In this document: piece by piece, positions 34,683 to 51,617 of the stretch
Layout of the letters: each line of letters opens with the position of its first letter
Numbering within the stretch: position 1 is the stretch's first letter
Virus record (IMG/VR): IMGVR_UViG_3300008261_000005
Strand: one strand, 5' to 3'
Source: a virus
DNA length: 64,000 bases
Translations under genes and position numbers: made by a program
Notes under the pieces: generated by a model
What the model was told of the DNA's origin: nothing
The model's input: the letters and a program-made list of their open reading frames with translations, nothing else
Database searches by the model: none

Positions 34683-34993
34683 CATCCAAGAAACTTTCAA
34701 AGGATGTTATTGAACGATGGCCCGAAGTATTTGAAGGGATACAGTTAAATGTAGTTCCCTTAAAATACTTACACTCTATTCAGATACATTTTAAAGATAA
34801 GAAGACCTGGGACATTGATATTTCTTCTAAAAAAGAAGAAATGACTTGGCAAGATGTTGAGAAAAATATTCACGAATTATTTGCACAATATCAAGACGAA
34901 ATTGAAAATGTAGATTTTAAACTTAATACTGAAAAATTAAAAAGTGATATAATCCAAGGTACTTCAAAATTCCTTAAGAAAAGAAAATTATAA
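34679..34993 (+). CDS. hypothetical protein
   Basis: 104 aa; WPEVF...VPLKYL. Confidence 0.6.
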   Translation: MTSKKLSKDVIERWPEVFEGIQLNVVPLKYLHSIQIHFKDKKTWDIDISSKKEEMTWQDVEKNIHELFAQYQDEIENVDFKLNTEKLKSDIIQGTSKFLKKRKL

Positions 34994-35658
34994 TGAAAGT
35001 TAAATTAATATCATCAAGTAAAGCCAGTAGAGAAATGGTAAATGAAGGTATTTACGATGCACAAGAGCTTATTGCCTTTTGTGCAAGAGTAAGTAACCCA
35101 GCTAATCAATTCAATACAGAAACTAGTGAGAAATTAATCAACTATCTAATCAAGCATCAACATTGGAGTCCGCTCGAAATGGTAAGTGCTTGTTTAGAAA
35201 TTGAAACCACACGTGATATTGCAAGGCAAATTTTAAGACACCGTAGTTTTAGTTTCCAAGAGTTCAGTCAACGCTATGCGGATCCTACTAAAGACTTGGA
35301 CTTTGTCATACGTGAGGCACGTCTGCAAGATACAACAAATCGTCAAAATTCTGTTGTAACTGATGACGTTGAATTGCAAGCGTGGTGGGATGCCAAGCAA
35401 AAGTTTATTATTGAAACTGTTAAACAAACATACGCAGAAGCTATTTCTAAAGGTATTGCTAAAGAACAGGCTCGTGCTATTTTACCAGAAGGTAATACAG
35501 TAAGTCGCTTGTACATGAACGGTACTTTGCGTAGTTGGATTCACTTTATTGAATTGCGAAGTGCAAACGGCACACAGTTAGAACATCAGCTGGTTGCTCG
35601 CGAGTGCGGACGAGTCATTGCAGAAGTGTTTCCAATGGCATCAAACCATATTAATTAG
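34993..35658 (+). CDS. thyX: flavin-dependent thymidylate synthase
   Basis: CARVS, HWSPLE, RQILRHRSFSFQEFSQRY (RHRx7S), EQARAILP, QLEH. Confidence 0.95.
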   Translation: MKVKLISSSKASREMVNEGIYDAQELIAFCARVSNPANQFNTETSEKLINYLIKHQHWSPLEMVSACLEIETTRDIARQILRHRSFSFQEFSQRYADPTKDLDFVIREARLQDTTNRQNSVVTDDVELQAWWDAKQKFIIETVKQTYAEAISKGIAKEQARAILPEGNTVSRLYMNGTLRSWIHFIELRSANGTQLEHQLVARECGRVIAEVFPMASNHIN

Positions 35659-36815
35659 TTGTAAGAGTTATCGCCGGGCCACAGAGGCAACTTTGTTCCC
35701 GGCGACCTTTTGGGTATTTTACTGTCAGCACTACTTACACAACTAGAAGTAATGCATGATTTAGGACCATCAAATAAGTTAAATCCAGTTTCAATATTGC
35801 CTAATGGAGCGTCATGACAACTATAGCTACGTTTGATACTGCCGTCAGGTTCACGTATAATAATACTACGGTATCCGCTTGAACATTCCCAATCTTTAAA
35901 TTTATTAAAGTTAAATGCATTAAATCGTTCAGCTTGATCCATGTACCAAACTTTTTTATTTTTGTCCACAAACTCTACTTGAAAGTGTTGCGGGATAGTA
36001 TCTTGTGAATATATAGGATCTGGAACTTTCTTAAATGTGGGTTCTGGTCTAACTACTAACTTAGCTTCTGCTGCCTTTGCTTCTGTATAGCCACGTTGCG
36101 GCATTCCGTTGTGTAATACTTTAAGCATTTCTGGAGTATACCCATCAACTACACGACTAGCAGTGGGATCACTTTGAGGCTTTAATGTTACATTAATTCC
36201 ACGATTGTGAAAGTATAATGCGTTCTCATAATCTTTATCAAACCATTCAGGAACCATTACCATGTTAATAGTTACTTGAACATCATGTTGCTGACATAAT
36301 TCTAATTTATCAGCAAACTCACTCATTTTTTCTTTAGTATTAACGTGTTCAGTATGCAGGCTAGCAGTGATACTTGCTCTATGAAATTTACTAACTGCCT
36401 TACAATATTCATCTCGATGCCATGCTAAACTACGACTCATATTCGTTGTCATATGTACACTAGTATAGTTTGTGTTTTCTGAATCATTGTTTAAGTGATT
36501 CAAAATGTCAATATAACCAGGATGAAACGTGGGTTCGCCGCCACTTAAACTAAAATGGAAACTATTAAATCCTCGGTCACGAGCTTGACGTTTAATCTCG
36601 TCAACAGTCTTTAAACACAGCTCAGTTGGTCTATGATCTTTTTTATCGCTTCGTGCGTAAGGCCAGCAGTAACTACACTTATAATTACAGAATCTGCCTA
36701 ACAGCCAACTTACTGTGAATAAGTCTCTATAAAGCATTGTACGTTGTCCAACACGTACTATATCGTCATAGGGTATTTGTGTAAAGTCGTATGCAGATGT
36801 TTTTAAATCACTCAT
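35655..36815 (-). CDS. radical SAM protein with C-terminal SPASM/twitch-like domain
   Basis: CNYKCSYC, LSGGEP, C-terminal WEC...SC...CITSSC; start at the TAATG overlap. Confidence 0.88.
   Translation of the reverse strand: MSDLKTSAYDFTQIPYDDIVRVGQRTMLYRDLFTVSWLLGRFCNYKCSYCWPYARSDKKDHRPTELCLKTVDEIKRQARDRGFNSFHFSLSGGEPTFHPGYIDILNHLNNDSENTNYTSVHMTTNMSRSLAWHRDEYCKAVSKFHRASITASLHTEHVNTKEKMSEFADKLELCQQHDVQVTINMVMVPEWFDKDYENALYFHNRGINVTLKPQSDPTASRVVDGYTPEMLKVLHNGMPQRGYTEAKAAEAKLVVRPEPTFKKVPDPIYSQDTIPQHFQVEFVDKNKKVWYMDQAERFNAFNFNKFKDWECSSGYRSIIIREPDGSIKRSYSCHDAPLGNIETGFNLFDGPKSCITSSCVSSADSKIPKRSPGTKLPLWPGDNSYN
35671..35711 (+). terminator. candidate terminator for the thyX transcript inside the convergent ORF
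   Basis: GC-rich inverted repeat tcgccggg ... cccggcga followed by ccTTTT at the strand-convergence point. Confidence 0.4.
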
Positions 36816-37279
36816 TAAGATTGAATCCACATAACTTTGGGTTTTGTTTCTACAGCATTTTCAAACACTTTCATGTCAACGTGTCTAGCCATAACAGCTT
36901 CATATTTGCTTTTATCAGAACTTTTGGGAGCGCATAGTCCACAACCACAAGTGTGTTTGGGACATATAATTGTTGGCATTGTACCAGCTTTTAAATGCTC
37001 TTCTAATTCTTTTAGAATTTTGTCGCCTTCGCTTAACTTACCAATTGGTCCGCGGGTTTGACCAAATTGTGCTTGGCATGTTTGATGATGGAATACACTA
37101 TCAGTTTGTTGTTCAATGTGCATAAAGAACCAATTGACGCTACAATGCCAACCTTTAAATTCTCTAAAATCTACAAACTTGCTTTTTCTATCAACACCAT
37201 CTTGACTTAGACACATGGTTCTACTACCACAGCACGGTCTACCTATTTTTAGACCCAATTCTTTCTTTTCTTCACTCAT
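36815..37279 (-). CDS. stand-alone Cys-rich SPASM/twitch-like domain protein
   Basis: PCCG, WHC, QTC, CPKHTCGCGLC; parallels the C-terminal domain of the neighbouring radical SAM protein. Confidence 0.6.
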   Translation of the reverse strand: MSEEKKELGLKIGRPCCGSRTMCLSQDGVDRKSKFVDFREFKGWHCSVNWFFMHIEQQTDSVFHHQTCQAQFGQTRGPIGKLSEGDKILKELEEHLKAGTMPTIICPKHTCGCGLCAPKSSDKSKYEAVMARHVDMKVFENAVETKPKVMWIQS

Positions 37280-37986
37280 GCTGCTTGTACCTTTTTAGTG
37301 TTATTTGACCAATAATCTTTCATCCACTGTAACTGTTCTTCAGTGTATTGATGTGCAAAATTGCTTTTACTGTCTGGTTCTTCGCCAATAATACGTGGAA
37401 CATATTTTATATCGTTGTCATCTAAAAATTCACATAGCTCAACACATTCGTCAAAGTATGCGGCATGAAACATCACATTGATACTGATACTACATTTATT
37501 AGCAGGGCCTTCTTTATGAAACTGAACCATACGATCTCTGACTTGTTGTTTAAGTGTGTCATCAGCCTCTGCATGGTAACTAACTGTTATGTGTCCAAAA
37601 TTTTCCATAACTTTCTGAGCCATTTTTTTACTCATTGCCCCATTGCTAGTAAGAGCAAAATTACACTCGTACTTGTCTTTATATTTGGTCTCGTATGCTT
37701 CTTTGAGGTACTTGGCAAAGGCAATAAAATTTGGATTTACTGTTGGTTCACCGCCAGTAAAACTAACACTTGCCCTCTTGTAATCTCTATAGGTCATGTA
37801 CAAATTTACATACTCCAACATAAAATCTGCATTTTTGATTAATTCTTCTAACGTGGCATGTGGGCTAAAATTGTCATGCCTATGAGCTGGACAATAACTG
37901 CAATCGTAATTACAGCGTCGACCAATATCCCAAGTTACTTGGAATACATTGCCATCAAGCAAATCAACTGTATCAAAACTAGCCAT
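37276..37986 (-). CDS. radical SAM protein (core domain only)
   Basis: CNYDCSYC, FTGGEP, LTSNG, VSYH. Confidence 0.88.
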   Translation of the reverse strand: MASFDTVDLLDGNVFQVTWDIGRRCNYDCSYCPAHRHDNFSPHATLEELIKNADFMLEYVNLYMTYRDYKRASVSFTGGEPTVNPNFIAFAKYLKEAYETKYKDKYECNFALTSNGAMSKKMAQKVMENFGHITVSYHAEADDTLKQQVRDRMVQFHKEGPANKCSISINVMFHAAYFDECVELCEFLDDNDIKYVPRIIGEEPDSKSNFAHQYTEEQLQWMKDYWSNNTKKVQAA

Positions 37987-39284
37987 TAAATATAATCCTT
38001 AAACTTTGGTTCTACATCGCACAAATTTTCTTGACGAATATTGTCTAATTGCTGTGTGTATTTTATAAATTCATTCCAGTGTGTATCATAATAATTATCG
38101 CTGTTCATATAACTTGTTACGCCTTTAGAAATATCTTCTGCTTGTTTAATTACATGCGCAGGATAATTATTATCTTTTACCCATTGAACAAACTCAACAA
38201 ACTTAACAGTGACATCTTTTTTGTATTGTTCTGGAAGGACACGTACATTTAAATGTTTTGGATGATGTGCAACATGATGTGTGATAATTGGGCGTTTTTG
38301 TGTGAAGTTTATTTTCTTTAAACCGCTTTCTGTTAATTTCCATTTCATAAAATCAATCATATGATTAACATTATACGCTGTTACTGTGAACGCAAGCCAA
38401 CCAAAAATATTATCTGGCAATTGATCAACCTTGTGTAAATTATCTAGTGTCTTTTGCCACTTAGCAGGATGTCGTTGATATTCTTGCATTGCACCCATAC
38501 CATCAACACTTGCACCAACACGAACTTGTTTAAAACTTTTCCATAAATTTGTAACACGAGTAGGAAGTGTACTCATGTTGGTATTGTACTCAATAATAAT
38601 ATGTTTTGCAGCATCTTTTTCAACACAACGTTCTAAGAAATCATAATGACGTTCAATTAGCATGGGTTCACCTCCCGCAAAATATACGTGTTGGATATTA
38701 TGTATGTTTGCCTCAAGTTGTTCCCAAAATGGTTCGTATTCTGGCCAGTCAAAAGCTGGAACATTCCCGTCAACAATTTCCATTATTCCGCCAGTATCTT
38801 TAAATTTATTACTGCCAGTTAACTTAATCCAATCATCGTACCATGCATTACTATCTGTTGGGCCGCACATACGACATTTTAAATTACAAAAATTTCCAAA
38901 TCTTAAATCATAATAAACTACAGGAAAGGTTTCAGTGGATATACTACCATCTTCAGCAGTTTTACTACGTGCTTCGTCGATAGTTAACTTCCATTGTTCA
39001 TTTTCGTATGTGCGTCTGCTAACTAACCCACTTGTTTCTTCGTTTTTACATCGTCCACATTCTTCGTTCCACACACCATTTAACATATTAAGACGAATTG
39101 TTTTCATCATACTGTTGTTACGTGCAAGGTCTAAATTATCTTTGCCAGCGTTAAATGCAGTGCCATCATCCTTGCGTATTACACCTTGATTTTTAGTCAC
39201 ATTTGCTTGACAACAAACTCGCATATCACCGTTTGCACGAATAGCTTGGAAGTTCCAAGGGATTGGGCAAAATGTATTACTCAT
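37986..39284 (-). CDS. radical SAM protein with N-terminal twitch domain
   Basis: FCPIPW...RVCC, CGRC, CNLKCRMC, FAGGEP, YNTN. Confidence 0.88.
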   Translation of the reverse strand: MSNTFCPIPWNFQAIRANGDMRVCCQANVTKNQGVIRKDDGTAFNAGKDNLDLARNNSMMKTIRLNMLNGVWNEECGRCKNEETSGLVSRRTYENEQWKLTIDEARSKTAEDGSISTETFPVVYYDLRFGNFCNLKCRMCGPTDSNAWYDDWIKLTGSNKFKDTGGIMEIVDGNVPAFDWPEYEPFWEQLEANIHNIQHVYFAGGEPMLIERHYDFLERCVEKDAAKHIIIEYNTNMSTLPTRVTNLWKSFKQVRVGASVDGMGAMQEYQRHPAKWQKTLDNLHKVDQLPDNIFGWLAFTVTAYNVNHMIDFMKWKLTESGLKKINFTQKRPIITHHVAHHPKHLNVRVLPEQYKKDVTVKFVEFVQWVKDNNYPAHVIKQAEDISKGVTSYMNSDNYYDTHWNEFIKYTQQLDNIRQENLCDVEPKFKDYI

Positions 39285-40138
39285 TTAGGTATCCTAGCTA
39301 CCATGTCAGGAATTTCTGTTTCTGCCCAGGAACGTTCTTGACACCAAAAACACTTGCCACAAGTTGGAACATAAATTCCTGGCTTATAATCTATAAGGCT
39401 TGGGAAAGTCTGACTAACAATTGCATCAGATAAATCGCCCTCGCAACTACGTGTAGTTTCATATAAATCTACAATTTTAAACAAGTAATATTGTGCAAGT
39501 ATCCAGGATTTGTCAACTAACAAAAATGGTAAGAATATGTGAGATCCATTTCTTTTTAAAATTAGTAGAGGTTCTTTTTTATCAGTGTCAATTCGACGTG
39601 CTGGCGGTTCACCGTCAATTGTATAGCTTAACGGATTGTGAGTAGTTGCATTAAATATAGCATCAAATTTATATTTGAAAATACAATATGAATTAAATTC
39701 ATCAATTTGAATTTGATCACCAGCTCGTAGCACACCTTTAGACATAATAATTTTACCCATTGCACCATCTTCAATTCCTGGAGCAATAAAATTAGTATGA
39801 CGATTTTCAATTACATCAGGAAACATTGATTTTAATTTATTAAAAACTTCTTCCGATATAGGTTCTTGCCAAGGTCTAGTATCCCAACAACGTATATGCG
39901 TGATAACATCTATTTTACAATCTAGTTTATTATCTTGAATAATTTTACATAACAAGAATGTGAGACAAGCACTATCTGCTCCACCTGATAAATTCACTCC
40001 AATTTTTTTCCAAGAAGTAGAAACTGGGATATCTAATCCGTTAATACGGTGTAATTCTAATTTTGGTAATTCACCACCGTACATTGCTTTGTACTGTGAT
40101 TTCATTTTGTTATACAAACTATTACTAAATTCAAACAT
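39281..40138 (-). CDS. QueC-like PP-loop ATPase/ligase
   Basis: LSGGADS PP-loop; C-terminal TRSC...CGKCFWCQER Zn site as in QueC. Confidence 0.65.
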   Translation of the reverse strand: MFEFSNSLYNKMKSQYKAMYGGELPKLELHRINGLDIPVSTSWKKIGVNLSGGADSACLTFLLCKIIQDNKLDCKIDVITHIRCWDTRPWQEPISEEVFNKLKSMFPDVIENRHTNFIAPGIEDGAMGKIIMSKGVLRAGDQIQIDEFNSYCIFKYKFDAIFNATTHNPLSYTIDGEPPARRIDTDKKEPLLILKRNGSHIFLPFLLVDKSWILAQYYLFKIVDLYETTRSCEGDLSDAIVSQTFPSLIDYKPGIYVPTCGKCFWCQERSWAETEIPDMVARIPK

Positions 40139-41549
40139 TAAAGATCTCCTTCATTTCTGGGAAAGTTTCTGCAAAGCTAATGCCACGCTGTGCATCACAT
40201 AAATCTAAAAATTCTTTCATTTCTGGAAGTCTAATGGTCCAATCTTCGCTTTCCATAAATTTTAACATACCGTCTAATCGACTAATACCATAACTAGCAT
40301 TGCGCCATTGCTCGTAAGTCACTTTACCCTTGTGCCATTCTGGTACACCTTTTTCCCAATTAGCTTCCCACCATGGATAAAATTCTTCGTACTTCTTGCG
40401 GCATTCTTCTTTAAACCATTTAGGCAAAACTTTTACATTCAAGTGAGGTGGATGATAAACAAAATGATAATTTACTCCACCAGCGCCAAATGGCCACATA
40501 TTAATTTTCTTAAAACCTTGTTCTAATTTCCATTTAATAAAATCAGGTATGTAGTAGATATTTAGAGCTTGGACTGCACACGCAACCGTAACTTCTGTAT
40601 TGCTTGGTGTTTGTGTATCTAAAATATGAAATACTTCAGCAGTCCTTGACCACTTGCTAGGATAACGAATGTAATCATTCATTTCCTCAATACTGTCTAC
40701 ACTATAATGAAAACGCACAAGTTTAAATTGTTTCCACAAATCAAACAAGTCATCTCTCCATTCTACACCGTTACTGTTATAACGCAATTCTAAATTTTTT
40801 GCATGTCCTTGACGAATACACTCTTCCAAAATTTCATAGTGTTCTTCAATAATTAAACTCTCCCCGCCTGCAAAATACAACTGTTGCATATTAGGAATTT
40901 GTTCATAAAACTGCTGCCAGAATATAGGATTATTTTTATGCCAGTTATAACTGCTACCATTTGTACTACCTTTATTTGACCACAACGTAGTTTGTTTTAA
41001 TGTTGAATTTTTAATCTTTGGATGTATTGCTTGCCAATCTTTAATCCATCCACTACTATCATGAGGACTGCACATTACACATGCTAACTGACATTTTGTT
41101 CCAAATCGCAAATCAATATAATTGAGTTTAGGAGGAACAGAACCATCTTCAGCAGTGTCGGCTACCAGTTGATTTAAATCTGTACGTTCCATCCAATATG
41201 CAGTTTCCCACATACGTTTGCTATTATGTCCAGCTGCTTCTTCTTTGTAACATTTAATACAACTAGGAGGTTGTTCGCCGTTAAGCATTTGCTTACGGAC
41301 ATTGCGCATATAGGTGCTGTTCCAACTTGATTGAAAATCGCTAACATTTAGATTAGCAGGTTTGCCTTCTTCTGTTTTTAGAATTCCAACCATACCCCCA
41401 TGTTGTTTGTCGTTGGTTGGACCAACACTACTTGCATTGGCCGTACAGCATACTCGCATACTTCCATCTGGACGTGTACTTAAATGCACCCACGGCAAAA
41501 TGCAAAAAGTTTCTGATGGAAGTTTAGTTGTTGGCTTAGGTGTTGTCAT
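40131..41549 (-). CDS. radical SAM protein with N-terminal twitch domain
   Basis: FCILPW...RVCC, CIKC, CQLACVMC, FAGGES, YNSNG. Confidence 0.88.
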   Translation of the reverse strand: MTTPKPTTKLPSETFCILPWVHLSTRPDGSMRVCCTANASSVGPTNDKQHGGMVGILKTEEGKPANLNVSDFQSSWNSTYMRNVRKQMLNGEQPPSCIKCYKEEAAGHNSKRMWETAYWMERTDLNQLVADTAEDGSVPPKLNYIDLRFGTKCQLACVMCSPHDSSGWIKDWQAIHPKIKNSTLKQTTLWSNKGSTNGSSYNWHKNNPIFWQQFYEQIPNMQQLYFAGGESLIIEEHYEILEECIRQGHAKNLELRYNSNGVEWRDDLFDLWKQFKLVRFHYSVDSIEEMNDYIRYPSKWSRTAEVFHILDTQTPSNTEVTVACAVQALNIYYIPDFIKWKLEQGFKKINMWPFGAGGVNYHFVYHPPHLNVKVLPKWFKEECRKKYEEFYPWWEANWEKGVPEWHKGKVTYEQWRNASYGISRLDGMLKFMESEDWTIRLPEMKEFLDLCDAQRGISFAETFPEMKEIFNV

Positions 41550-42666
41550 TTATAAATTTAATCTCGTTTTGATATGCTTTGTTATTGCCGCATGTTCTTA
41601 TACATTTTTCAATATGCATTTTATGTGAAGGATCCCAACTTGCTTCAAGTAGACTAGAAAACCACTCATGCGCCAGTATATCATCAATACTGTTATTAAC
41701 TAGGCTATTCCATCCTGGTTTGAAGTCTTTAGTTAGTTTTAAAAAGTCATCTCTATGAGTATGGGCCAATTGCCATAGGAAACAACACGGCCACATGGTC
41801 AAGTCTGATGCTATAAAAATTTCACCTTCATGTACTAATTTACAAACTATAGAATCTAAAATTCTTTTTTTCGTTGATTCATCATTTACTACATTTCCAG
41901 TAGACTTTCCTATTATTGGAACAAATCCTGTAGATGTAGAATATGTATTAATAAACTGTTGTAATTCCTTAACTTGTTCTATTTTACTATGAGCTTTATC
42001 ACTTGCTGTTGTAATAACAAAATCTTCTTTTATTGTTTTTTTAGTTGTTGAGTCTTTTTTAGGCAACTTAGCAACCCAGTCATTAATAGTGTTGCGAATA
42101 CCTGTTCTAGTAGCAAATTTAAAACCTAATCTACTAGCAGCCTGTCGTGCAATTTCTAATTCGTGTTCGTTATGATCAAACACAATAAACATCCAAGTAG
42201 CTGATGCAAATCCTTTTCCGCCCATAGCATATGCAGTCATATTTCGTTCAATAACATCAAAAACGGTATTGACTCGATAGATATGATTGGTTTCTTTGTG
42301 CCCGTCAACTGCAAATACTACATTAATTAGTTTAGTTTTAGAACTAATTTCCCCTAGTTCTTTCCACCATGCTACTGTTTGATAACCACCGTTAGTACTT
42401 ATTTGACAATAGCCGTTATGATCTGTTAGATATTTTACCATATCTAACATTTCAGGATGTACAACTGGATCTCCTAAAACTCCACAAAATTTAAATTGCT
42501 TCTTGGATATTTCTTTACTAGTTGGAAATAATCGTTTAATATCATTCAATGAAAAAGATTGAATTGTTAGTAGTTCAGGCATTCGTGTGCGTGTACAACC
42601 TGGACAGGCAGCATTACAATCGCTTGTAATTTCTAACTCGATCTTTTTGATATTATCAATGTTCAT
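41536..42666 (-). CDS. radical SAM protein with C-terminal Cys domain
   Basis: CNAACPGC, FCGVLGDP, STNGG, AVDG, WPCC, CIRTC. Confidence 0.85.
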   Translation of the reverse strand: MNIDNIKKIELEITSDCNAACPGCTRTRMPELLTIQSFSLNDIKRLFPTSKEISKKQFKFCGVLGDPVVHPEMLDMVKYLTDHNGYCQISTNGGYQTVAWWKELGEISSKTKLINVVFAVDGHKETNHIYRVNTVFDVIERNMTAYAMGGKGFASATWMFIVFDHNEHELEIARQAASRLGFKFATRTGIRNTINDWVAKLPKKDSTTKKTIKEDFVITTASDKAHSKIEQVKELQQFINTYSTSTGFVPIIGKSTGNVVNDESTKKRILDSIVCKLVHEGEIFIASDLTMWPCCFLWQLAHTHRDDFLKLTKDFKPGWNSLVNNSIDDILAHEWFSSLLEASWDPSHKMHIEKCIRTCGNNKAYQNEIKFINDNT

Positions 42667-43826
42667 TTAAACTGTTCCGCAAAGGCATCATATTTACCAC
42701 AGGTCTTAGCACATACAGATAATTTTCCTTCCGCACAACTGGGCTTGTTCCAGCTATCTGGTATAATCTTTTGAAAATATAGACCGTCTACAATATTCTC
42801 TAGAGTATTGATTTTAGCATTAATACTGTCTTTTCCAACTTGATTTATTGCGTCCCAGATTTGTGTTCCTTCAGAACTATGATACCAAACATACATTTGA
42901 CCCGCTGTCCAGCAACAAGGTTGAATAATTCCTTCTGCGCTCACATACACACTTTTTTCTTCAGAAACTTTACAGGTTATGTTTGAAGAATCTAAACTTA
43001 ATTCCATTTTAGACTTTTTAGCAGGATCTAAATTAAAACGCTGTGGAGTTTGGATTGCTGTTGCTTCAATTTGTTTAGAAGGAATATACTTAACAGTTTC
43101 CTGTTTGCCTAAAACATCACTTAGTTTATCCAACACCCCATTTCTGTATTTAGGATTAGTCGGTGCTTGTAATAAAGTTGTTGCACCTTTACGATTGGCT
43201 GCTTGATGCACTTCTTTTGTAACCCCGCTAGTATTACTAAAGAATCTAGCAGACTTTTTAAACTGGAATTTTTCAAAGCCCATTACACGACTTAGTTCTT
43301 CAGCAGTTTCAACTTGATGTTCATTGTGTGCAAAAACAATATAATCCCATCTTGCTCTGCCACCAGCATCAATAAATGCTTGTGCATTTTCTACTATCTT
43401 AGACCATACTGTATTTTGTCTGTATAAATGATTTGTGTCTTCTAATCCATCAATACTGAATACAACGTATGCGTTCTTACCTAACACCCTTGCTAAGTTT
43501 GCCCACCACTCAGGCTTTTTAGCACTGCCGTTTGTATACATTGTAAGATTCATTTTAGGATTGTGTTCTCTAAAATATGCAAACACTTCTAATGTATCTT
43601 TGGCCGCAACTGGATCCCCAAAATTACCGCACATATACATTCTATCTAACTGTGAAATAAATTCAGGTTTAAAAATAGTCTTGCAGTCATCCAAACTTAA
43701 TTCATTGTCTTTGAGATGTGGATTATCTTCACCGCCATTAATATTCCTTGCACACATAGGGCAAGCGGCATTACATGCTTCTGTAATTTCTAAATGAACT
43801 GTTTTTAAATCTGAATATCTATACAT
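42663..43826 (-). CDS. radical SAM protein with C-terminal Cys domain
   Basis: CNAACPMC, MCGNFGDP, TNGS, SIDG, QPCC, CAKTC. Confidence 0.87.
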   Translation of the reverse strand: MYRYSDLKTVHLEITEACNAACPMCARNINGGEDNPHLKDNELSLDDCKTIFKPEFISQLDRMYMCGNFGDPVAAKDTLEVFAYFREHNPKMNLTMYTNGSAKKPEWWANLARVLGKNAYVVFSIDGLEDTNHLYRQNTVWSKIVENAQAFIDAGGRARWDYIVFAHNEHQVETAEELSRVMGFEKFQFKKSARFFSNTSGVTKEVHQAANRKGATTLLQAPTNPKYRNGVLDKLSDVLGKQETVKYIPSKQIEATAIQTPQRFNLDPAKKSKMELSLDSSNITCKVSEEKSVYVSAEGIIQPCCWTAGQMYVWYHSSEGTQIWDAINQVGKDSINAKINTLENIVDGLYFQKIIPDSWNKPSCAEGKLSVCAKTCGKYDAFAEQFK

Positions 43827-44053
43827 TAAATGTCCATTAATAATCTTATATCTTTTCCAGGACCTACTTTACTAGGCATATCACCGTGTTGTTGGACATA
43901 CCATTGTATTACGGCTTTGTACCAATTTTGACTATTATGATGTGCTTCTTTATTAAACTTATGAATATTGTTACTTGTTGCTTCAAACGTAGATAAGGCT
44001 CTTGCTGCCTCTACTTGTAACGTTCTCAAATCCAATTCATCTAAGTCTATCAT
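43826..44053 (-). CDS. small hypothetical protein
   Basis: 75 aa, overlapping both neighbours in the operon. Confidence 0.55.
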   Translation of the reverse strand: MIDLDELDLRTLQVEAARALSTFEATSNNIHKFNKEAHHNSQNWYKAVIQWYVQQHGDMPSKVGPGKDIRLLMDI

Positions 44054-44901
44054 GGTCTTCCAATAAGCATATAACGCTTATACCCTGTTAATTGTAACAC
44101 ACCTTCATACAAAAGTCTAGTCATTGGAAACTTTTTCTTCATTTCTCCCATGCTGTGTATTGAATTGATATGATCTTCAACTTCATGTAAGTTATTACTT
44201 TGAATGACAAATAATGGATCCGTTTCTAAAGGTCGATTAACAAACTTATGATACCAATCTTCGTGAAAATGTTCTGCGCTAGTATTCACAATTAAATCAG
44301 GCGTAGTTTTTTCGTTAATTTCTTGACCAGTAGTATAATTTTTTATTTTATACTGACAACCTGTTCGATATAGCCAGCTCATATCTGTTAAGTCTAATTC
44401 TACAGACTTAACTTGATAGTTATTAATAAAATCTATATTAAAGATCTTATCACTAATTTCACATGCATTAGGATCAATATCAACAATTCTCATCTTATCA
44501 TAAGAGATGTTGGCTATATCAAAAAACTTACGTAATTGTCCGTACCAGCCAGCTAATAAAAATACAACTTTGAAATCTTTTTGTATTTTTGCCAACTCCG
44601 TAACTAACCAAATTTTACTTTGTACTTGGCCCCTACTAAATGCGTCTTGTAATGCAACTGGGTTATGCCCTTCTCTATAATACTTGTGGAATGTATCTAA
44701 AATTTCATTAGGAGCATATTTACGCAATGTATTAATAAACTCAACTATCCCAGCACCGTCATTAAATTTTATAATAGGATTGTCTGCATAAATCATATGC
44801 ATTAGAAAATCTACATATTTTTTTGACTCTTGATCATTGGCAAACGCAAAATAGTCTTCCAATCCATGTAGCCAACTAATATTATCAGTATTATTTTCCA
44901 T
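44050..44901 (-). CDS. class I SAM-dependent methyltransferase-like protein
   Basis: LLAGWYG (motif I-like), IVDID, IVNTSAEH. Confidence 0.55.
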   Translation of the reverse strand: MENNTDNISWLHGLEDYFAFANDQESKKYVDFLMHMIYADNPIIKFNDGAGIVEFINTLRKYAPNEILDTFHKYYREGHNPVALQDAFSRGQVQSKIWLVTELAKIQKDFKVVFLLAGWYGQLRKFFDIANISYDKMRIVDIDPNACEISDKIFNIDFINNYQVKSVELDLTDMSWLYRTGCQYKIKNYTTGQEINEKTTPDLIVNTSAEHFHEDWYHKFVNRPLETDPLFVIQSNNLHEVEDHINSIHSMGEMKKKFPMTRLLYEGVLQLTGYKRYMLIGRP

Positions 44902-45580
44902 TACATTCCTTATTAAATTGTTCAGCTAGCCAATCAAAGTCATTGATTAATTTTAATGCTGTCATGTCGCCTTTATTTGCAATACCGTATCTGGTTCCTG
45001 CCTTTGCGCCAGCTAATGCATATTTTCCATATGGTTTGTCTGCGCCCACTGTACACCACGCCTGTAATCTAACATCAGTTTCTTCTGATTTTTGTCTATC
45101 AATTACTTTACTAGATAATTTAACGCATTCTCTAAACGCACTTTTCCAAGTATTAAACTCATCAGTGTTAAAAGCAGTCACATTACTAATTACAGGCACT
45201 GCTTTAAAATGCTTACTAATACTAGTTGTCATATCTGGCTTGCTAGTATCCATATTAATTGTATCCAATCTAGGCAGAAGTTTTACTCCACCGTTCCCAT
45301 ATTCTAAATAGTTTACAGGGTTTAAACTTCTCCATACGTGTACAGTTTCTAGCCCACGAGATTCTAGTTTATAATCAAAATCAAAACTATCTAACACTTC
45401 TGCATCACCATCAACCACCCAAATCATTTTTGTAAAACATTTTTTAGCTGCAATGATATGAGCATTGTGTATCCCTTTAACTCCATGAACACGTTTTGTC
45501 ATAGGAAATCGATTTTTTAATTTTAGCCAGTTTGATTCTGCGTTTGGTTCGTTATAACTGATAAAGACGATATCAAACAT
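44891..45580 (-). CDS. GT-A fold glycosyltransferase-like protein
   Basis: DIVFISY, VVDGD (DxD), YGNGGVK; paralog of 45580-46494. Confidence 0.6.
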   Translation of the reverse strand: MFDIVFISYNEPNAESNWLKLKNRFPMTKRVHGVKGIHNAHIIAAKKCFTKMIWVVDGDAEVLDSFDFDYKLESRGLETVHVWRSLNPVNYLEYGNGGVKLLPRLDTINMDTSKPDMTTSISKHFKAVPVISNVTAFNTDEFNTWKSAFRECVKLSSKVIDRQKSEETDVRLQAWCTVGADKPYGKYALAGAKAGTRYGIANKGDMTALKLINDFDWLAEQFNKECNGK

Positions 45581-46494
45581 TACTTGCTCACTATAAATTT
45601 ATTGGGCATTCTAGGTGGATTAACATACATGGATTTAAATAGTTTACTTTGTTCGGCAGTAAACATATCTGCCATTTCTAATTCTAATTCGTGTACGAGA
45701 GTTTCTCCAATTCCCATAATTTCATAAGGTAACATTTTATCAGTTACTTTTCCATCATTGTTTTCCCAGTAATTGTTTAACCATTTAAAGTCACGTACAT
45801 TAACATAATCCCAATCTGTACAATTAGTCATGTAGCAACCTTGTCTAGCACCATATATTGCCCAAATGCCATTAGGCACATCTGCACCTATGTGCATCCA
45901 GACCATCAAACGTTGAAAATTCTTCCAGTGAACTTGCTTAACAATATTATCAGCTTTAGATCCCTCAAGCAATCCCATTTTGACACCTTCACGAAAGCCC
46001 GCACGCCAGGCTTGCTGTGGGCTTGCATTATTATGCACGTCACTCATGCATTGTTCCATTTGAATGTAATTAATATCCCAACAAAAATCCACTTGGGTCT
46101 TAGCATTATCACTTTCCGCAGCCTCGTGGGTCTTCATATCTAATACTAATTGCGTGGGCCAACACTTAATACCACCATTACCATATATCAATCCGTTAAT
46201 AACATTTTGTGCGCCCCAACTAATAACACTTTTATCAAGTTCAACGTCATCTTTAAATTCTATAACCTGTTCTAAAAATTCTGGACGTACAATATTGTCC
46301 CCGTCAATCACAATTAATCTTGGAGTACTACACAATCTAGCACAGGCCTTATGTGCTGCATCACTGCCCTCTACCCCGTGTACACGTTTAGCCCAAGGAA
46401 CTTTTTTTAACAAGTCTGCGTAATTTTTTTCAGCGTTAGGCTCATCATAACTTAGATATACGATATCACAGTCTATTACTTTTAATGTACTCAT
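45580..46494 (-). CDS. GT-A fold glycosyltransferase-like protein
   Basis: DIVYLSY, VIDGD (DxD), YGNGGIK, AWRAGFREGVK. Confidence 0.6.
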   Translation of the reverse strand: MSTLKVIDCDIVYLSYDEPNAEKNYADLLKKVPWAKRVHGVEGSDAAHKACARLCSTPRLIVIDGDNIVRPEFLEQVIEFKDDVELDKSVISWGAQNVINGLIYGNGGIKCWPTQLVLDMKTHEAAESDNAKTQVDFCWDINYIQMEQCMSDVHNNASPQQAWRAGFREGVKMGLLEGSKADNIVKQVHWKNFQRLMVWMHIGADVPNGIWAIYGARQGCYMTNCTDWDYVNVRDFKWLNNYWENNDGKVTDKMLPYEIMGIGETLVHELELEMADMFTAEQSKLFKSMYVNPPRMPNKFIVSK

Positions 46495-47078
46495 GCTACT
46501 AACAACCCATAAGATTTAAAATAACCAAAAGTTGAAATGGTAAAAGAATCAATATCTTCTTCTAAACTGGATTTAAAATGTAACTTATTTCCGTCTTTTA
46601 TATTGGAAACTTGTATGGTAATTGTTTTAAGCAAGTAATGGGGGTCTTTTACTGTAGTTAAATAAAAATCAAAAGTTGTAGATGGATTAATTTTAGATAT
46701 CATAACTTTAGCATCATCACTTAATAATATTTCCCAACGTTTTTGCTTTTTTTTATGAATGATTGTAAAATCTGTAATACCCTTATCAGTCACTCGAGGG
46801 ATTTCATAAATCAATGCACTGGATATTTTAATAGACTCGTCTTTAGTCTGTAATGCATTATCAAATTTAAAATAATCAATATTATATCGACAGTAATCTT
46901 TTTTTCCGCTTAAAAAATCATGCAATCTAGACTTTGGCACTTCTAAGTATCCACCAGTACTGGGTAAATTAGAAATGCCTGTAATAGTTCCAGCTTCGTC
47001 ATGCCAAACATACATTGTTTTAGGTATTTCTGACACTGCTTCTGCTTGTAAAATTTCTTGTAATGTAAGTGTATCCAT
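46491..47078 (-). CDS. hypothetical protein
   Basis: 195 aa ORF in operon. Confidence 0.55.
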   Translation of the reverse strand: MDTLTLQEILQAEAVSEIPKTMYVWHDEAGTITGISNLPSTGGYLEVPKSRLHDFLSGKKDYCRYNIDYFKFDNALQTKDESIKISSALIYEIPRVTDKGITDFTIIHKKKQKRWEILLSDDAKVMISKINPSTTFDFYLTTVKDPHYLLKTITIQVSNIKDGNKLHFKSSLEEDIDSFTISTFGYFKSYGLLVA

Positions 47079-47079
47079 A

Positions 47080-47901
47080 TTAATATCTCAATGTGTTAAT
47101 AATGTTATTTGTCAAAAAGTCATCCTCAGTGTAATGAAATACACCAGTTTGTAAAAAATTACCAATTTTTAACTGTTTATCTTGATTAAAACTAATACCT
47201 ATTTGATTTATCCAAGACGAAGGGGGACTGTCCCACCCCTGAATTGCTGGCTTCATGTGTACAAACGATGGAGAAACTTTAGATGTCATTTCGTGTTCTG
47301 TTTCCATAAACACTAACGCAAGTGCCGCATTGACATCCATACTACAAAATCTTTGTTTTGTATTAGGTAAGAATTTATCGTAAAATTGTTCCCAATTTTT
47401 AGTAATAACTTCTAACCATTTATAAAATTCGTATCCTTGCACTGACTTCTTAAAATAATGAACTCCAGTATATACATTAGGTAGGTTATTTGCAGTAAAA
47501 GTTTTTCTGTAATAATCATCACTAATTTCTCTACCTTTATAATCTTTTACACACGAAGTAAGACATATTGATTTGTTTTTAAGAAATTCCCACCAATGAT
47601 CATTCGATGTTAATAACAGCATGTCAGTATCATATATCAAACTTTCTTTAAACGGTGTTATATGTGCAATTTTCCACCTGTTTTCAACTTTCCATGTTTT
47701 TTCTTTAGCATCATCACCCCACGGTATATCTAATATGTGGTCAAATGTGTGTCTGTAATCATCAGGCACTGTATCATTTGTAATTAAACAAGTCTGATTA
47801 TGCTGTTTATTATTCAATTTGATAGATAGTGCAAGAGCATAGGCTTGTGTTACATAGTTTACGTTTGAGTTTTGAGCTAGGAATACATGACCTTTAGACA
47901 T
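47080..47901 (-). CDS. GT8-like glycosyltransferase
   Basis: YDTD (DxD), NVYTGVHYF, MD, VHMK; paralog of 47894-48736. Confidence 0.6.
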   Translation of the reverse strand: MSKGHVFLAQNSNVNYVTQAYALALSIKLNNKQHNQTCLITNDTVPDDYRHTFDHILDIPWGDDAKEKTWKVENRWKIAHITPFKESLIYDTDMLLLTSNDHWWEFLKNKSICLTSCVKDYKGREISDDYYRKTFTANNLPNVYTGVHYFKKSVQGYEFYKWLEVITKNWEQFYDKFLPNTKQRFCSMDVNAALALVFMETEHEMTSKVSPSFVHMKPAIQGWDSPPSSWINQIGISFNQDKQLKIGNFLQTGVFHYTEDDFLTNNIINTLRY

Positions 47902-48736
47902 TTCGTATAACCCTCAATAAGCTCTGTTTATTCATAACATGTACGTCTAAAGAATTGGTACTAATTGCAGTGTATTGATCTACTGTATTTTCTTTATTAA
48001 CTAGCAATGTCATTTTGTTATCAGTTGCGCTAATTAAAATGTCTCTGTCTAGGATATAGCTCAATTTATTAGCAATAGGCATGGCAAAATCACCACTAGT
48101 AAATCCGTTCATCATATGAATAGCAATGCTAAACGCAATATCATTGCGGTAACGTGTACTTGGTACTCTATACAATTTAGCATAGTATACCCAATTATCT
48201 TTAATGTGTTCAATTAAAGTGAAAAAATGTTCAGTTGTTGAATTTTTCCTAAAGAAAAATACAGTAGCCCAATAAAAAGGTATGCTAAACTGATTAATAT
48301 AATCAAACTCGCTGGTATTTCTCCACGATGCTAGATCATTATATTTGTTATATATTAAGAAATTATGATTTTGATCCCAGCAATATTCAAGAAATGATGA
48401 ATTAATTATAAAATCACTATCTATTACTAGTGTTTCATCATAAGGACTTAGGTAGAAACAATTTGCTCTGTTAGAATTTTTCCATACTAGGTTAGAATAA
48501 CTATCAGCGCCATCATAAAATTTTTTAACTTGCGTGGTTGTGTCAACAGATTCAATGATCTTATCAAATACATCTACATCGTTGGGGAAAGTCTTATATA
48601 GCCATTCAGAACTATCAGTTACTAGACTAACTGGTTTATTTAAAAAACGTTTTACCCGTTTGGCTGCATATATCGACAACTCCACATAGTCAACTTCAGA
48701 ATTATTAAAGGCAAATATTAATACACCTTGTGTCAT
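47894..48736 (-). CDS. GT8-like glycosyltransferase
   Basis: SPYDETLVIDSD (DxD), WATVFFF, RND, HVMNK. Confidence 0.6.
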   Translation of the reverse strand: MTQGVLIFAFNNSEVDYVELSIYAAKRVKRFLNKPVSLVTDSSEWLYKTFPNDVDVFDKIIESVDTTTQVKKFYDGADSYSNLVWKNSNRANCFYLSPYDETLVIDSDFIINSSFLEYCWDQNHNFLIYNKYNDLASWRNTSEFDYINQFSIPFYWATVFFFRKNSTTEHFFTLIEHIKDNWVYYAKLYRVPSTRYRNDIAFSIAIHMMNGFTSGDFAMPIANKLSYILDRDILISATDNKMTLLVNKENTVDQYTAISTNSLDVHVMNKQSLLRVIRNV

Positions 48737-49080
48737 AAATCTAACAAACTCTCAACTGATCTACTATTTTTGATTTTTTGATATTGGGTTTGATAACTGT
48801 TTGTCGCAGATGCATACACTGACAATATGCTGTCTAAAAATTCTGTTAGTGAGGGGATGTCTACTGGAAGATTATTGTCATCAAGAATGACTGAATCAGT
48901 ATGCTCAAGATCAATTAAAGTTTTTACAAAATTAATTAATTCTCTAGTGACTTTGAATGTTGCGCCGTTAAAAAAATAAACGCAATTTTGTTGATATTCT
49001 TCGTAAATTACCTTTTTTTGATTGGCCAACGTTGTTACAAAATTGGCAATTTCAAAGGCTTTTAATAGCTTGTCGTCCAT
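48733..49080 (-). CDS. hypothetical protein (possibly tail-fibre-assembly-like)
   Basis: 115 aa after a GGAGG RBS; first gene of the GT/radical SAM operon. Confidence 0.5.
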   Translation of the reverse strand: MDDKLLKAFEIANFVTTLANQKKVIYEEYQQNCVYFFNGATFKVTRELINFVKTLIDLEHTDSVILDDNNLPVDIPSLTEFLDSILSVYASATNSYQTQYQKIKNSRSVESLLDL

Positions 49081-49099
49081 ACGGACCTCCTGAACAATA

Positions 49100-49128
49100 A
49101 TTATACTATCTTATAATTATCGTGTCAA
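49100..49128 (-). promoter_or_regulatory. sigma70-type promoter for the GT/radical SAM operon
   Basis: Minus strand reads TTGACA-cgataattataagatag(17)-TATAAT, then GGAGG and ATG. Confidence 0.85.
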
Positions 49129-49141
49129 GAGCTATAAGGGT

Positions 49142-50104
49142 TTATATTCCGGATTGAGTGAATGCGGGACTAGGAACTGTTACGTTTGCTGATGCGGCTC
49201 TTGCAATTTTTACAATACTAGTTAGTGTACCAGTAACTTGTTCATCAACTCCAGGCCCTGGTCTACGTCCAGGTCGTTGATCTCCGAGGTCTGCGTCATC
49301 AAACTCAATAGTAAACGTTAATACTGTAGCAGTATTGTTAGCTGCATTCTTTTTAACTAGAATTCTATATTCGTTTTCTAGGTAAACCCCAGGAGTTGTT
49401 GGTTTAACAAAAACATATTGATCTGAAGTTGTCAACTCATACCAACCAATTGATGTTTTTGGATATCCGCCCGCGGCTTCAGTACCAGTATACGTAGTTC
49501 CGTGGGCTGCAAATTTAATTGTCCCCATTGCTGTTAGCATTTGATCCCAACGACCACCTTTGTCATTAGTTCCGCCTGTATAGCCAGTAATAGTTGCCGA
49601 GAATTGAAATGATCCGCCAGCGTTAAAGAAATGTCTTGCAGCATCACCAGATGCAAAAGTTATTGTAACTGTATGAGTTAACTTGCCATTCCACGGACTG
49701 GTTCTTCTAGAAAGTGTTGGATCATATAAGTTAACTGGTGGCGCTTCTGTAAGTGCAACCGTAAGTCGATCTGTGCTACAAAGTGAAGCAAAATCTTTAT
49801 ATTGATTAGCAAATGTGTCATCAATTAAGTCAGTAGTTGTAGGCAAAGTTAAACTTACGCTTTCATTTAACCCCGTTTGATGCTGACGAATTTTAAGCAA
49901 ATCAGTTCTCAGTGTATTCCATTGACTAACAGTTACTTTAACATCTGCTGCAACTTGTGCGCTACCAACTGCTTGCCCGTAACCAGAATCAGAAAGACCA
50001 GCTCCAAGTAAGAACTCAGTTGTACTTTGAATGTTATTAAAGTCAGCAGCATAAATTATGTTTCCAGCTGCTTTTGGGAATATCCCTGGTGATCCGATTG
50101 GCAT
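49142..50104 (-). CDS. virion structural protein (tail/baseplate)
   Basis: T/G/S-rich beta protein, GxxYGQ and RHFFNAGG segments, in the tail module. Confidence 0.6.
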   Translation of the reverse strand: MPIGSPGIFPKAAGNIIYAADFNNIQSTTEFLLGAGLSDSGYGQAVGSAQVAADVKVTVSQWNTLRTDLLKIRQHQTGLNESVSLTLPTTTDLIDDTFANQYKDFASLCSTDRLTVALTEAPPVNLYDPTLSRRTSPWNGKLTHTVTITFASGDAARHFFNAGGSFQFSATITGYTGGTNDKGGRWDQMLTAMGTIKFAAHGTTYTGTEAAGGYPKTSIGWYELTTSDQYVFVKPTTPGVYLENEYRILVKKNAANNTATVLTFTIEFDDADLGDQRPGRRPGPGVDEQVTGTLTSIVKIARAASANVTVPSPAFTQSGI

Positions 50105-50127: not shown

Positions 50128-50135
50128 TATTTATA
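50128..50135 (-). promoter_or_regulatory. T4-type late promoter (TATAAATA)
   Basis: Full T4 late consensus on the minus strand upstream of 50104. Confidence 0.65.
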
Positions 50136-51617
50136 TTATAAAATTAATGCTTCAACTAATTTGACCCCGGTGTCATCACTAGATTGTAATGCAACAGCAA
50201 AAACTCCATTTGAGAGTGGCGCTGCTACTACTGCACAGCCATTATCAGAAGCAATCAACTCGTCTCCCTTTTTAATGGCTCCAATTACTTTAACTGGAAC
50301 TCGGCCTTTAAGAGCAACAGTGGTACCACCCTCAAGACTCTTGTTCATTAAAAATGCTGGATGCGCACTTACTGCCCCAATTGCACGTTTACCTAATTTA
50401 CTAGCAGTAATTTCTGAAGTGCCGCCAATCATCACTACAGTTCCAATGTCATATTCTGCATCAGCTAAGTATTTTTCTGCCAAGTCAGCATAGTATGCCT
50501 CAGTAGCTGTTCCAATAAATAATCTTGCCGCTAAATCACCGTCTACTGTTCTTGCCGCAATGGTATTGCCAGTGTCTGATGTTGACGCTGCTCTAGCATT
50601 GCCTGCAACATTAACTGCATCTGCTGTAGTAGCAGTACCTTCAAACGATACTGCATATACTGAGGAAAATCTTGAAGTTGATGATCCAATGTCTGACGTA
50701 TTATCTGTACCAGGTAATACGTTAGGTCCAACTAATTTCATAGGGGTGTATGTTGCGCCAGAGGTAGTTCTAAATTCAATTGTACTGCTTAATTGATTTT
50801 CAAATACTGGAGTAGTGCCTTCAATGTAAACCGCAATATCATCATCGTTACCAACAGTATAGCCTAAATCACTAAATCTAATGGCAACTGACGGTAGTGT
50901 AGAAACATCATTTCTTACAAAACTTGAAGCTGCTACACCACCCAATCTTTCTGAGTTAGAAGCTGTTCCCCAGAATCTATAATCAGATCCAGTAACACCG
51001 CGGGCGTCAGCACCGGCAGTTACGTTTGGGGTGTTAATTAAAGTTAGGCCTTTCTTAATCACGCTAAACCCAGCAATTGCATTTACAGAATTTTTAAGGG
51101 TAAATTCAGTAGGAGAAATAATATAAACAGTTGCACCATCTACGACTGCTTCAATGATGGCATGTAATCCATCAGTAGTATCTGTAACACTACGTGATCT
51201 TAATTGAGTAGTGTCTGCATCTGCTACTGCTTGCGGTCCAATTAATGAAAATTGGTCATCGGCTTCGTTCCAAGCAAACAATTGATTAGTATTTGTGTTA
51301 AACCAGAAATCACCAGTAGTTAAACCAGTTGGTTCAGCAACCCCTATTTCAGCGCCGCCAGTTGTACGAAATTGTGTTCCGTCAAAGAATTTTAACTTAC
51401 TAGAAGTAGCATCAAACCATATTTGACCAGTAATTTTCTTAGGAGGAGGATTTTCTCCTGCAAAGTTTTCCAGCAAGAAAACAAAGTTTTCGTTCTGAAT
51501 TTCCCCGTAACCAGCGTAGTTTTTACCAACAAGTTTAATATCTAAACTGCTGTCTACGGTACCGTCTTCTACGGTAGCTGCTAAATCTTGATTGTATTTG
51601 TTAATATTGTAAGGCAT
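50136..51617 (-). CDS. tail fibre/baseplate protein with C-terminal intramolecular chaperone (peptidase G2-like) domain
   Basis: Shared N-terminal GKNYAGYG...NENF..LLENFA domain; C-terminal YADLAE...GTVV...ALKGRVPVKV...KGD. Confidence 0.7.
   Translation of the reverse strand: MPYNINKYNQDLAATVEDGTVDSSLDIKLVGKNYAGYGEIQNENFVFLLENFAGENPPPKKITGQIWFDATSSKLKFFDGTQFRTTGGAEIGVAEPTGLTTGDFWFNTNTNQLFAWNEADDQFSLIGPQAVADADTTQLRSRSVTDTTDGLHAIIEAVVDGATVYIISPTEFTLKNSVNAIAGFSVIKKGLTLINTPNVTAGADARGVTGSDYRFWGTASNSERLGGVAASSFVRNDVSTLPSVAIRFSDLGYTVGNDDDIAVYIEGTTPVFENQLSSTIEFRTTSGATYTPMKLVGPNVLPGTDNTSDIGSSTSRFSSVYAVSFEGTATTADAVNVAGNARAASTSDTGNTIAARTVDGDLAARLFIGTATEAYYADLAEKYLADAEYDIGTVVMIGGTSEITASKLGKRAIGAVSAHPAFLMNKSLEGGTTVALKGRVPVKVIGAIKKGDELIASDNGCAVVAAPLSNGVFAVALQSSDDTGVKLVEALIL

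Follow-up and report, generated by a model that had tools for sequence, protein, structure and literature searches.

A phage operon of transferase-like proteins and radical SAM enzymes as a candidate cassette for building and editing a glycan

Introduction

Giant algal and amoebal viruses, as well as a few mycobacteriophages, are known to encode glycosylation machinery of their own. To our knowledge, none of these machineries couples sugar transferases to arrays of radical S-adenosylmethionine (SAM) enzymes. Here, we describe a 16-gene operon of a large, uncultured T4-like phage in which transferase-like genes stand beside six radical SAM genes. It is encoded in a 64,000-nucleotide stretch of viral DNA (IMG/VR record IMGVR_UViG_3300008261_000005), and the whole of this stretch is called the window below. 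Our preferred reading, to which we assign a probability of roughly 0.5, is that the enzymes of the operon assemble a glycan in the cytoplasm and afterwards edit it by radical chemistry.

Among the described systems, the chlorovirus PBCV-1 offers a parallel in domain architecture. Its A064R protein combines two rhamnosyltransferases with a methyltransferase and builds the end of the capsid N-glycan, and the PBCV-1 glycosyltransferases are soluble, cytoplasmic and early-expressed (PMC9614988). The domain order of A064R (GT-A transferase, second transferase, methyltransferase) is the same as that of the fusions between the operon genes g12, g11 and g10 reported below. However, A064R and the cassette have no detectable sequence similarity, the host here is bacterial, and the giant-virus pathways have no radical SAM array.

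In pelagimyophage and T4-like ocean genomes, the same place is taken by a hypervariable region past a giant VrlC-like gene and the tail fibres. This region holds GT8-type glycosyltransferases and swappable radical SAM cassettes, and one T4-like genome with 12 radical SAM genes has been reported (PMC7029224, PMC5332604). The pelagimyophage paper puts VrlC at the start of the host recognition region and proposes O-chain modification by the glycosyltransferases of the region (PMC7029224). Both papers list the genes without a functional test; promoters, module structure, fusions, a bacterial core and fold evidence are absent from them. An earlier interpretation of the window, made from its letters without database searches (the sequence-only reading), had held that no such pathway was characterised. 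No function was tested in these papers, but the cassette had already been described there.

A cultured relative is the Ralstonia jumbo phage RsoM2USA (MG752970; PMC8504454). Its block ORF347–355, at identities of 26–44%, begins with the fibre-like open reading frame (ORF) ORF355, which is followed by homologues of g16, g15 and g14, an ORF where g13 would stand, and g12; a single N-terminal-twitch (N-twitch) radical SAM gene, g11 and g10 come next. Its place is downstream of the sheath gene, a 2541-residue structural gene and virion proteins detected by proteomics. Compared with the window, the block carries a single radical SAM gene and lacks homologues of g1, g5, g8 and g9, and all of its ORFs are annotated as hypothetical.

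Results and Discussion

Layout and enzyme content of the operon

The minus strand from 49080 to 35655 holds 16 ORFs, numbered g16 (first) to g1 (last); all coordinates given for these genes refer to that strand. At each junction, the genes either overlap by 1–16 nucleotides (nt) or are separated by a 1-nt gap. The encoded proteins comprise six radical SAM enzymes, one QueC-fold PP-loop ATPase, two GT8-like proteins, two GT-A-fold proteins and one methyltransferase-like protein. Relative to a phage with 94% identical DNA (G001/L001), the ratio of nonsynonymous to synonymous substitution rates (dN/dS) was 0.00–0.24 across all 16 genes. Purifying selection thus acts on the whole operon. The synonymous rate against this nearest relative rose from 0.004 in g1 to 1.1 in g7, with values of 0.9–1.1 in g5, g7 and g8. 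This spread of about 250-fold marks the operon as a recombination mosaic whose central array genes have been exchanged.

The sequence-only reading had described 16 tightly overlapping minus-strand genes, including six CxxxCxxC enzymes in three paralogue pairs, and both descriptions were borne out. By BLASTP, the pairs are g4/g6 (36% identity), g7/g8 (27%) and g1/g3 (25%). Its enzyme classes stood for the radical SAM enzymes, their pairing and the PP-loop protein. Its glycosyltransferase labels are carried by fold and profile, and its methyltransferase label is the weakest of the set. The ten genes other than the six radical SAM genes gave no significant match in the family libraries (Pfam, PHROGs, NCBIfam), and a megablast search of the operon against 50,697 phage records returned no match. 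No characterised member of the main enzyme families of the cassette was found in the literature searched. None of the 16 proteins contains a membrane-type hydrophobic segment, and all 16 are predicted to be soluble.

Transferase-like and methyltransferase-like proteins

For the transferase-like protein g12 (45580–46494), an AlphaFold2 model was obtained with a predicted local distance difference test (pLDDT) score of 90. Residues 1–156 adopted a GT-A fold (Z = 10.5, root mean square deviation (rmsd) = 3.1 Å, 136 residues aligned), followed by a helical C-terminal domain. Nucleotidyltransferases of the same fold scored Z values of about 9 against the model, as compared with 10.5 for GT-A enzymes. 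The top Foldseek matches included structures of PBCV-1 A064R-D1, and further matches were the peptide glycosyltransferases SunS and ThuS (Z = 9.2–9.7) and WrtF. In the viral library, Foldseek retrieved GT2 and GT25 proteins, including the glycosyltransferase of mycobacteriophage Che8. The shorter paralogue g11 (44891–45580) is 33% identical to g12 (E = 1e-31). The two have the invariant motifs SY-E-N, DGD (D64-G-D66) and YGNGG-K in common, and neither matched a Pfam, NCBIfam, PHROG or PDB sequence entry.

The second pair, g15 (47894–48736) and g14 (47080–47901), is GT8-like, with 24% identity between the paralogues (E = 5e-8). A DxD motif is invariant in both (D91, D93); in g14, a DTD motif and a C-terminal H-x-K-P motif were read by eye. 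A joint profile of the pair reached glycogenin-1 and -2 (E = 7e-5 to 5e-4), with the alignment confined to profile positions 5–103 in the N-terminal half. No Pfam match was obtained at E = 0.01.

g10 (44050–44901) resembles a Rossmann methyltransferase, although the call is weak. The Spermine_synth model scored 18.6 bits against a cut-off of 22.9, and one Atlas neighbour cluster contained 21% Methyltransf_31. AGWYGQ stands at the expected place of the glycine-rich motif I and is followed by DID. A profile search of PDB sequences gave no match for g10.

Fusion proteins from other genomes linked g10 to the GT-A-like pair. We compared the 120 best longer homologues of g12, which all joined g12 to g11, with or without g10; 39 were g12+g11 fusions (about 535 residues) and 80 were g12+g11+g10 fusions (820–1220 residues), most of the latter with a stretch of about 190 residues without family before the g10 domain. 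The domain order was always the gene order of the window (g12, g11, g10). From these fusions it follows that the three genes work as one unit. The promoter pattern described below may be new, and so may these fusions and their parallel with A064R.

A related pairing occurs in the cultured bacterium Pedobacter aquatilis (L190:4814-14239, contig_0008). Here, a g11-like gene lies among genes for GT25, radical SAM, GT4-like, two GT2, histidine phosphatase and FkbM methyltransferase proteins. The setting is one of ordinary glycan synthesis, and in it, too, the g11 family is paired with a radical SAM enzyme.

Radical SAM enzymes

Five of the six enzymes exceeded the PF04055 cut-off of 29.5 bits (g1, 60.2; g3, 46.6; g4, 37.1; g6, 30.3; g8, 34.8). 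The sixth, g7, scored 25.3 bits, which is below the cut-off, but it has the CxxxCxxC motif and is 27% identical to g8 (E = 1e-39).

The paralogues g6 (40131–41549), which is among the best-conserved genes of the cassette, and g4 (37986–39284) are N-twitch radical SAM enzymes. Both matched the family model NF033640 (N_Twi_rSAM; cut-off 170 bits) over its full length, g4 with 381.8 bits (model positions 1–397) and g6 with 412.4 bits (1–398). The family itself is a catalogue entry, and we found no characterised member in the literature searched; what differs here is its occurrence as paralogue arrays inside a phage cassette. Among the 16 longest relatives of g6, 13 were tandem N-twitch/N-twitch fusions and one was a fusion of an N-twitch and a g7-like protein. 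The tandem fusions suggest that the paralogues act in series.

g8 (42663–43826), a member of the conserved core, carries a C-terminal cysteine set of the auxiliary-cluster type, and g7 (41536–42666) is its paralogue. In both, the C-terminal cysteines follow the pattern CX13GX4C plus CxxxC. The invariant cysteines of g8 are C18/C22/C25, C285, C304, C305, C372 and C376. Neither protein matched PF13186 (SPASM); the five invariant cysteines in C285-x13-G-x4-C304 C305 and C372-x3-C376 make up a partial SPASM-like or twitch-like set.

The last gene of the operon, g1 (35655–36830), also belongs to the conserved core (mean column identity 74%) and encodes a radical SAM enzyme with a four-cysteine C-terminal domain. 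Its paralogue appears in two pieces. g3 (37276–37986) holds the radical SAM core and is 25% identical to residues 32–237 of g1. g2 (36815–37279) is a cysteine-rich protein of 154 residues with a dN of 0.000, and it matched residues 298–349 of g1 weakly (E = 1e-3). Because g2 matches the C-terminal part of g1, g3 and g2 together represent a split copy of the g1 architecture, as the N- and C-terminal halves, respectively. Wherever relatives have this pair, g2 again follows g3.

Distribution in phages

The cassette is very common among contigs of uncultured viruses. A pattern search for g6 matched 174 viral stretches, 173 of which encode a g6 relative; from these 173, we kept 80 loci with relatives 78–98% identical. 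Patterns for g12 matched at least 596 viral stretches. In protein clusters, g12 was represented by more than 8000 (at 90% identity), all called hypothetical where a source names them, and g6 by 963 (at 50% identity) with E values of 1e-30 or better. The order g16–g15–g14–(g13)–g12 was kept in 91 of 91 loci, and the fibre-module neighbour u1 (49142–50104, minus strand), which lies outside the operon, directly preceded g16 in 81 of them. In phages, the cassette was always found beside fibre-like genes.

The number of radical SAM genes was less constant, with 0 to 12 copies per related locus, counted within the stretch fetched after g12. Six loci without a radical SAM gene kept the transferase genes, and in these g11 directly abuts thyX. 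At the other end, five related phage records of 236–383 kb, of which two were complete genomes about 383 kb long, had 12–19 radical SAM matches each. The radical SAM array is a variable add-on to the cassette.

Since the cassette sits in the host-range region of abundant aquatic phages, its product could bear on phage–host recognition in fresh water and in the ocean.

Bacterial chromosomes with the conserved core

Chromosomes of Bdellovibrionia carry a core of g12-g11-g6 / g8-g1 at 42–66% identity, located between MoxR/DUF58 and SppA genes. The identity to the copies in the window was 47–48% for g8, 59–61% for g6 and 65% for g1. No fibre gene and no GT8 gene was found near the core locus. The tie of the enzymes to tail proteins, as drawn in the sequence-only reading, is therefore not universal.

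One Bdellovibrionia genome (G007:C1:745000-775000) holds an array of 14 N-twitch genes in 30 kb, beside rpoD/dnaG and flanked by a sugar-nucleotide pyrophosphorylase of the UDPGP family. Orphan genes of this array, which gave no NCBIfam or Pfam match, recur in phage cassettes. In total, two Bdellovibrionia genomes gave about 25 and about 29 matches to the N-twitch family. We rejected mis-binned phage DNA as the source of these copies, considering their location between MoxR/DUF58 and SppA and beside rpoD/dnaG, on contigs of 0.49 and 0.92 Mb.

Glycan editing or protein modification

According to the preferred reading, the four transferase-like proteins would work in the cytoplasm, with nucleotide-sugars as the donors for glycosylating an acceptor, and g10 would methylate the glycan product. 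The radical SAM enzymes would abstract hydrogen from sugar carbons, leading to epimerised, deoxygenated, oxidised or C-methylated residues, and their number would set the elaborateness of the product. g5 might use ATP to activate a carboxylate in the manner of QueC, with the amidation of a uronic acid as one example. The operon has no membrane segment, and the library scans showed no flippase, polymerase or lipid-carrier gene in it, which fits direct cytoplasmic glycosylation. For the N-twitch profile, residues 4–77 aligned to the twitch domain of BtrN (E = 5e-6) and the radical SAM core aligned to BlsE; both of these enzymes act on sugar-like substrates. The assembly line for a modified glycan that the sequence-only reading had proposed survives in its enzyme classes and general idea; the co-transcription with tail genes, the tie to tail proteins and the claim of novelty needed correction.

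Several observations weigh against glycan editing. Neither transferase pair has a Pfam match, so that the fold and a weak profile match carry these assignments; the methyltransferase call for g10 is weak as well. The operon itself lacks genes for the synthesis of nucleotide-sugars. Among solved structures, the N-twitch profile matches 8vpo best (cyclopropyl synthase, E = 4e-12), an enzyme that modifies peptides, with SkfB next. The largest bacterial N-twitch array, the 14 copies in 30 kb described above, has no g11/g12 or GT8 gene, and it holds two homologues of the Asp/Asn beta-hydroxylase, whose family has proteins or lipid A as substrates.

The last two of these observations feed the main rival, in which the radical SAM enzymes modify proteins or peptides (cross-links, epimerised residues, C-methylations) and not sugars. 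In phages, they would act on fibre-type proteins, and in predatory bacteria on proteins of the surface; the GT-A-like pair would be peptide or protein glycosyltransferases. 8vpo and SkfB are maturases of RiPPs (peptides made on the ribosome and altered after translation), and SunS and ThuS among the fold matches of g12 are glycocin S-glycosyltransferases. The hydroxylase homologues also occur in at least nine phage cassettes, and the constant adjacency to fibre-like genes agrees with such substrates, as does an N-twitch array free of glycosyltransferase genes. However, the solved radical SAM matches are generic, with viperin, BlsE and BtrN also among them, and the Bdellovibrionia islands have no fibre gene alongside. 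The operon shows no precursor peptide, and library scans of it matched no RiPP recognition element, protease or exporter/transporter family. With g9 and g16 as the only small ORFs, the operon does not have the composition of a RiPP cluster. g9 was considered as a RiPP precursor and rejected on account of its uniform 72% conservation and the lack of a conserved cysteine. We judge a modification of proteins or peptides in place of sugars to be unlikely.

Glycan building followed by radical editing remains our preferred reading. The question can be tested now, owing to the g12+g11+g10 fusions, which provide the three activities in a single polypeptide, and to the cultured phage RsoM2USA with its one radical SAM gene.

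Promoter and the likely acceptor

The operon promoter (49128–49100, minus strand) was placed in the 61-bp gap ahead of g16. Its sequence is a perfect TTGACA-17-TATAAT; next come a GGAGG ribosome site and the start of g16. Perfect copies occur four times in the 64-kb window (10776–10804, 24000–24028 and 32268–32296 on the plus strand, and the operon promoter on the minus strand). Each is intergenic and directly upstream of a correctly oriented gene, and one precedes folE. The four sites look like the sigma-70-type promoter class of the phage, presumably an early one. Among 62 distinct regions upstream of g16 in relatives, 42 had the promoter with at most one mismatch, mostly at a similar distance to the start codon.

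The fibre genes showed another signal. The T4-late-type sequence TATAAATA lies at 50128–50135 (minus strand), 31 nt before u1, and this is its sole exact copy in the window. Since 7.3 copies are expected by chance, the motif is depleted elsewhere in the window. Related (N)ATAAATA/TAAATA motifs were found 25–31 nt before the neighbouring genes u2 and u5 and several plus-strand genes (upstream of the starts at 51617 and 55638 on the minus strand, and at 5346, 6243 and 9082 on the plus strand). No (N)ATAAATA late-type motif was present before g16. With its own conserved sigma-70-type promoter next to late motifs on the fibre genes, the operon is a separate transcription unit beside the tail genes; by analogy with T4, its promoter class would be early or middle. 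The sequence-only reading had placed the operon behind the tail genes. The adjacency holds, but it does not mean co-transcription, and we rejected the idea that the operon is expressed solely from transcripts shared with the fibre genes, given the operon's own promoter and its conservation in relatives.

This promoter class bears on the acceptor. The cassette could remodel the envelope glycolipid of the infected host (the core of lipopolysaccharide (LPS) or lipooligosaccharide) early in infection, masking receptors against superinfection or against the loss of progeny on debris. A promoter class distinct from that of the late fibre genes agrees with this proposal. GT8 is a family of LPS-core glycosyltransferases, and GT25, with a gene in the Pedobacter cluster, is a named LPS biosynthesis family. 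The lipid A hydroxylase LpxO is a member of the Asp/Asn beta-hydroxylase family, of which LpxO-like members occur in related arrays. On the other side, the operon encodes no membrane-associated protein, flippase or carrier-lipid enzyme, and radical SAM enzymes are not known in LPS core synthesis. The O-chain modification proposed for the glycosyltransferases of the region points to the envelope (PMC7029224). Early expression is equally true of the capsid-glycosylating enzymes of chloroviruses (PMC9614988). A virion target therefore does not conflict with an early-type promoter, and we dropped early expression as an argument against such a target. A host envelope glycolipid is, in our estimate, an improbable acceptor.

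For glycan building and editing, we slightly favour a virion protein of the adjacent fibre module as the acceptor over the host envelope, although we give both a low probability. This choice is tentative and draws on the chlorovirus analogy; in its favour, two distant phage groups constantly have the cassette next to fibre-like genes, and no lipid-carrier, flippase or polymerase gene is present.

g5 and the deazaguanine genes

g5 (39281–40138) encodes the QueC-fold PP-loop ATPase, with an invariant SGGADS motif and four invariant cysteines. The best fold match of its model (pLDDT = 89) was QueC (Z = 14.2, rmsd = 3.7 Å, 188 residues aligned), followed by TilS (Z = 13.6), Cap9 (12.6) and QatC (11.8). 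g5 has the PP-loop fold, the SGGxDS motif and the C-terminal cysteine cluster of QueC, Cap9 and QatC, but differs in its lack of a Pfam QueC match. PF06508 did not match g5 at E = 0.01, and its relatives reached only 14–17 bits against a cut-off of 22.

The plus strand of the window carries folE, preceded by the perfect promoter type found before g16, and a QueE-like gene. The cassette could therefore be imagined to hypermodify phage DNA or a nucleotide by extending the 7-deazaguanine pathway encoded 10–20 kb away, with g5 as its QueC. g5 is the sole QueC-fold gene here, and thyX abuts the operon. T4 DNA-modifying enzymes are soluble and early, and the operon likewise combines soluble enzymes with a sigma-70-type promoter. 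The relatives argue otherwise. folE and a DpdA-like gene are present in all five large relatives; one of these, a complete 383-kb phage (G002), has both genes and 12 radical SAM matches but no g5-like gene. Related loci contain 0–3 copies of g5-like genes, which drift fast (30–50% identity, as compared with about 80% for g6). g5 varies in step with the radical SAM array, not with the deazaguanine genes. In view of G002, the copy number and the missing match to the QueC model, we rejected g5 as the QueC of the deazaguanine pathway. g5 is instead a probable accessory tailoring enzyme of the cassette. A DNA target is also unlikely because of the roughly 25–29 copies of the N-twitch family per bacterial genome, and we consider this explanation very improbable. 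The exclusion of g5 as QueC may be new, as may the Pedobacter context and the bacterial array with hydroxylases and without glycosyltransferase genes.

Interleaved with the deazaguanine genes on the plus strand (17176–18950 and 22575–23126) are oxidoreductases of the Gfo/Idh/MocA and zinc-type alcohol dehydrogenase-like kinds and a phosphoribosyltransferase. These could supply sugar or nucleotide precursors.

Copy number of the radical SAM arrays

The arrays comprise six copies in the window, up to about 19 per phage and about 25–29 per Bdellovibrionia genome. In a more far-reaching proposal, which we regard as quite doubtful, they would be a diversifying toolkit that writes a combinatorial code of radical-edited sugars or residues on the host-recognition fibres of phages and on the surfaces of predatory bacteria. 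If true, recognition surfaces would be tuned or hidden by a novel form of editing after assembly, with a chemistry that has no characterised precedent in any virus.

Orphan and neighbouring genes

Three operon genes are orphans. g16 (48733–49080) encodes 115 residues and is the first gene of the operon here and in relatives; it had no Pfam, PHROG or NCBIfam match. g13 (46491–47078; 195 residues), which also had no match in these libraries, lies between the two transferase pairs and is poorly conserved, with 22–38% identity in most relatives, and it is missing from many. g9 (43826–44053; 75 residues) is very conserved (mean column identity 72%, evenly spread) and has no family-wide conserved cysteine. 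g10 directly precedes g9 in 99 of 100 loci. For g9, a profile search of PDB sequences gave only spurious repeat and antibody matches, Atlas gave none, and no longer proteins containing g9 were found.

Beyond the end of the operon, thyX (34993–35658, plus strand; TIGR02170, 157 bits) is convergent with g1 and overlaps its end by 4 nt. On the fibre side, a profile search of PDB sequences gave no match for u1; its C-terminal domain recurs in RsoM2USA ORF355, just ahead of the g16 homologue. Two fibre-like genes follow on the minus strand (50136–51617 and 51643–52944). They have a conserved N-terminal segment of about 90 residues in common with u4 and RsoM2USA ORF355, and the C-terminal region of one of them weakly matches the intramolecular-chaperone domain Peptidase_G2. 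A giant ORF (55686–63998, minus strand) lies upstream of the fibre genes; it is open at the window end and has a length of at least 2581 residues. The 2541-residue structural protein of RsoM2USA occupies the same relative position.

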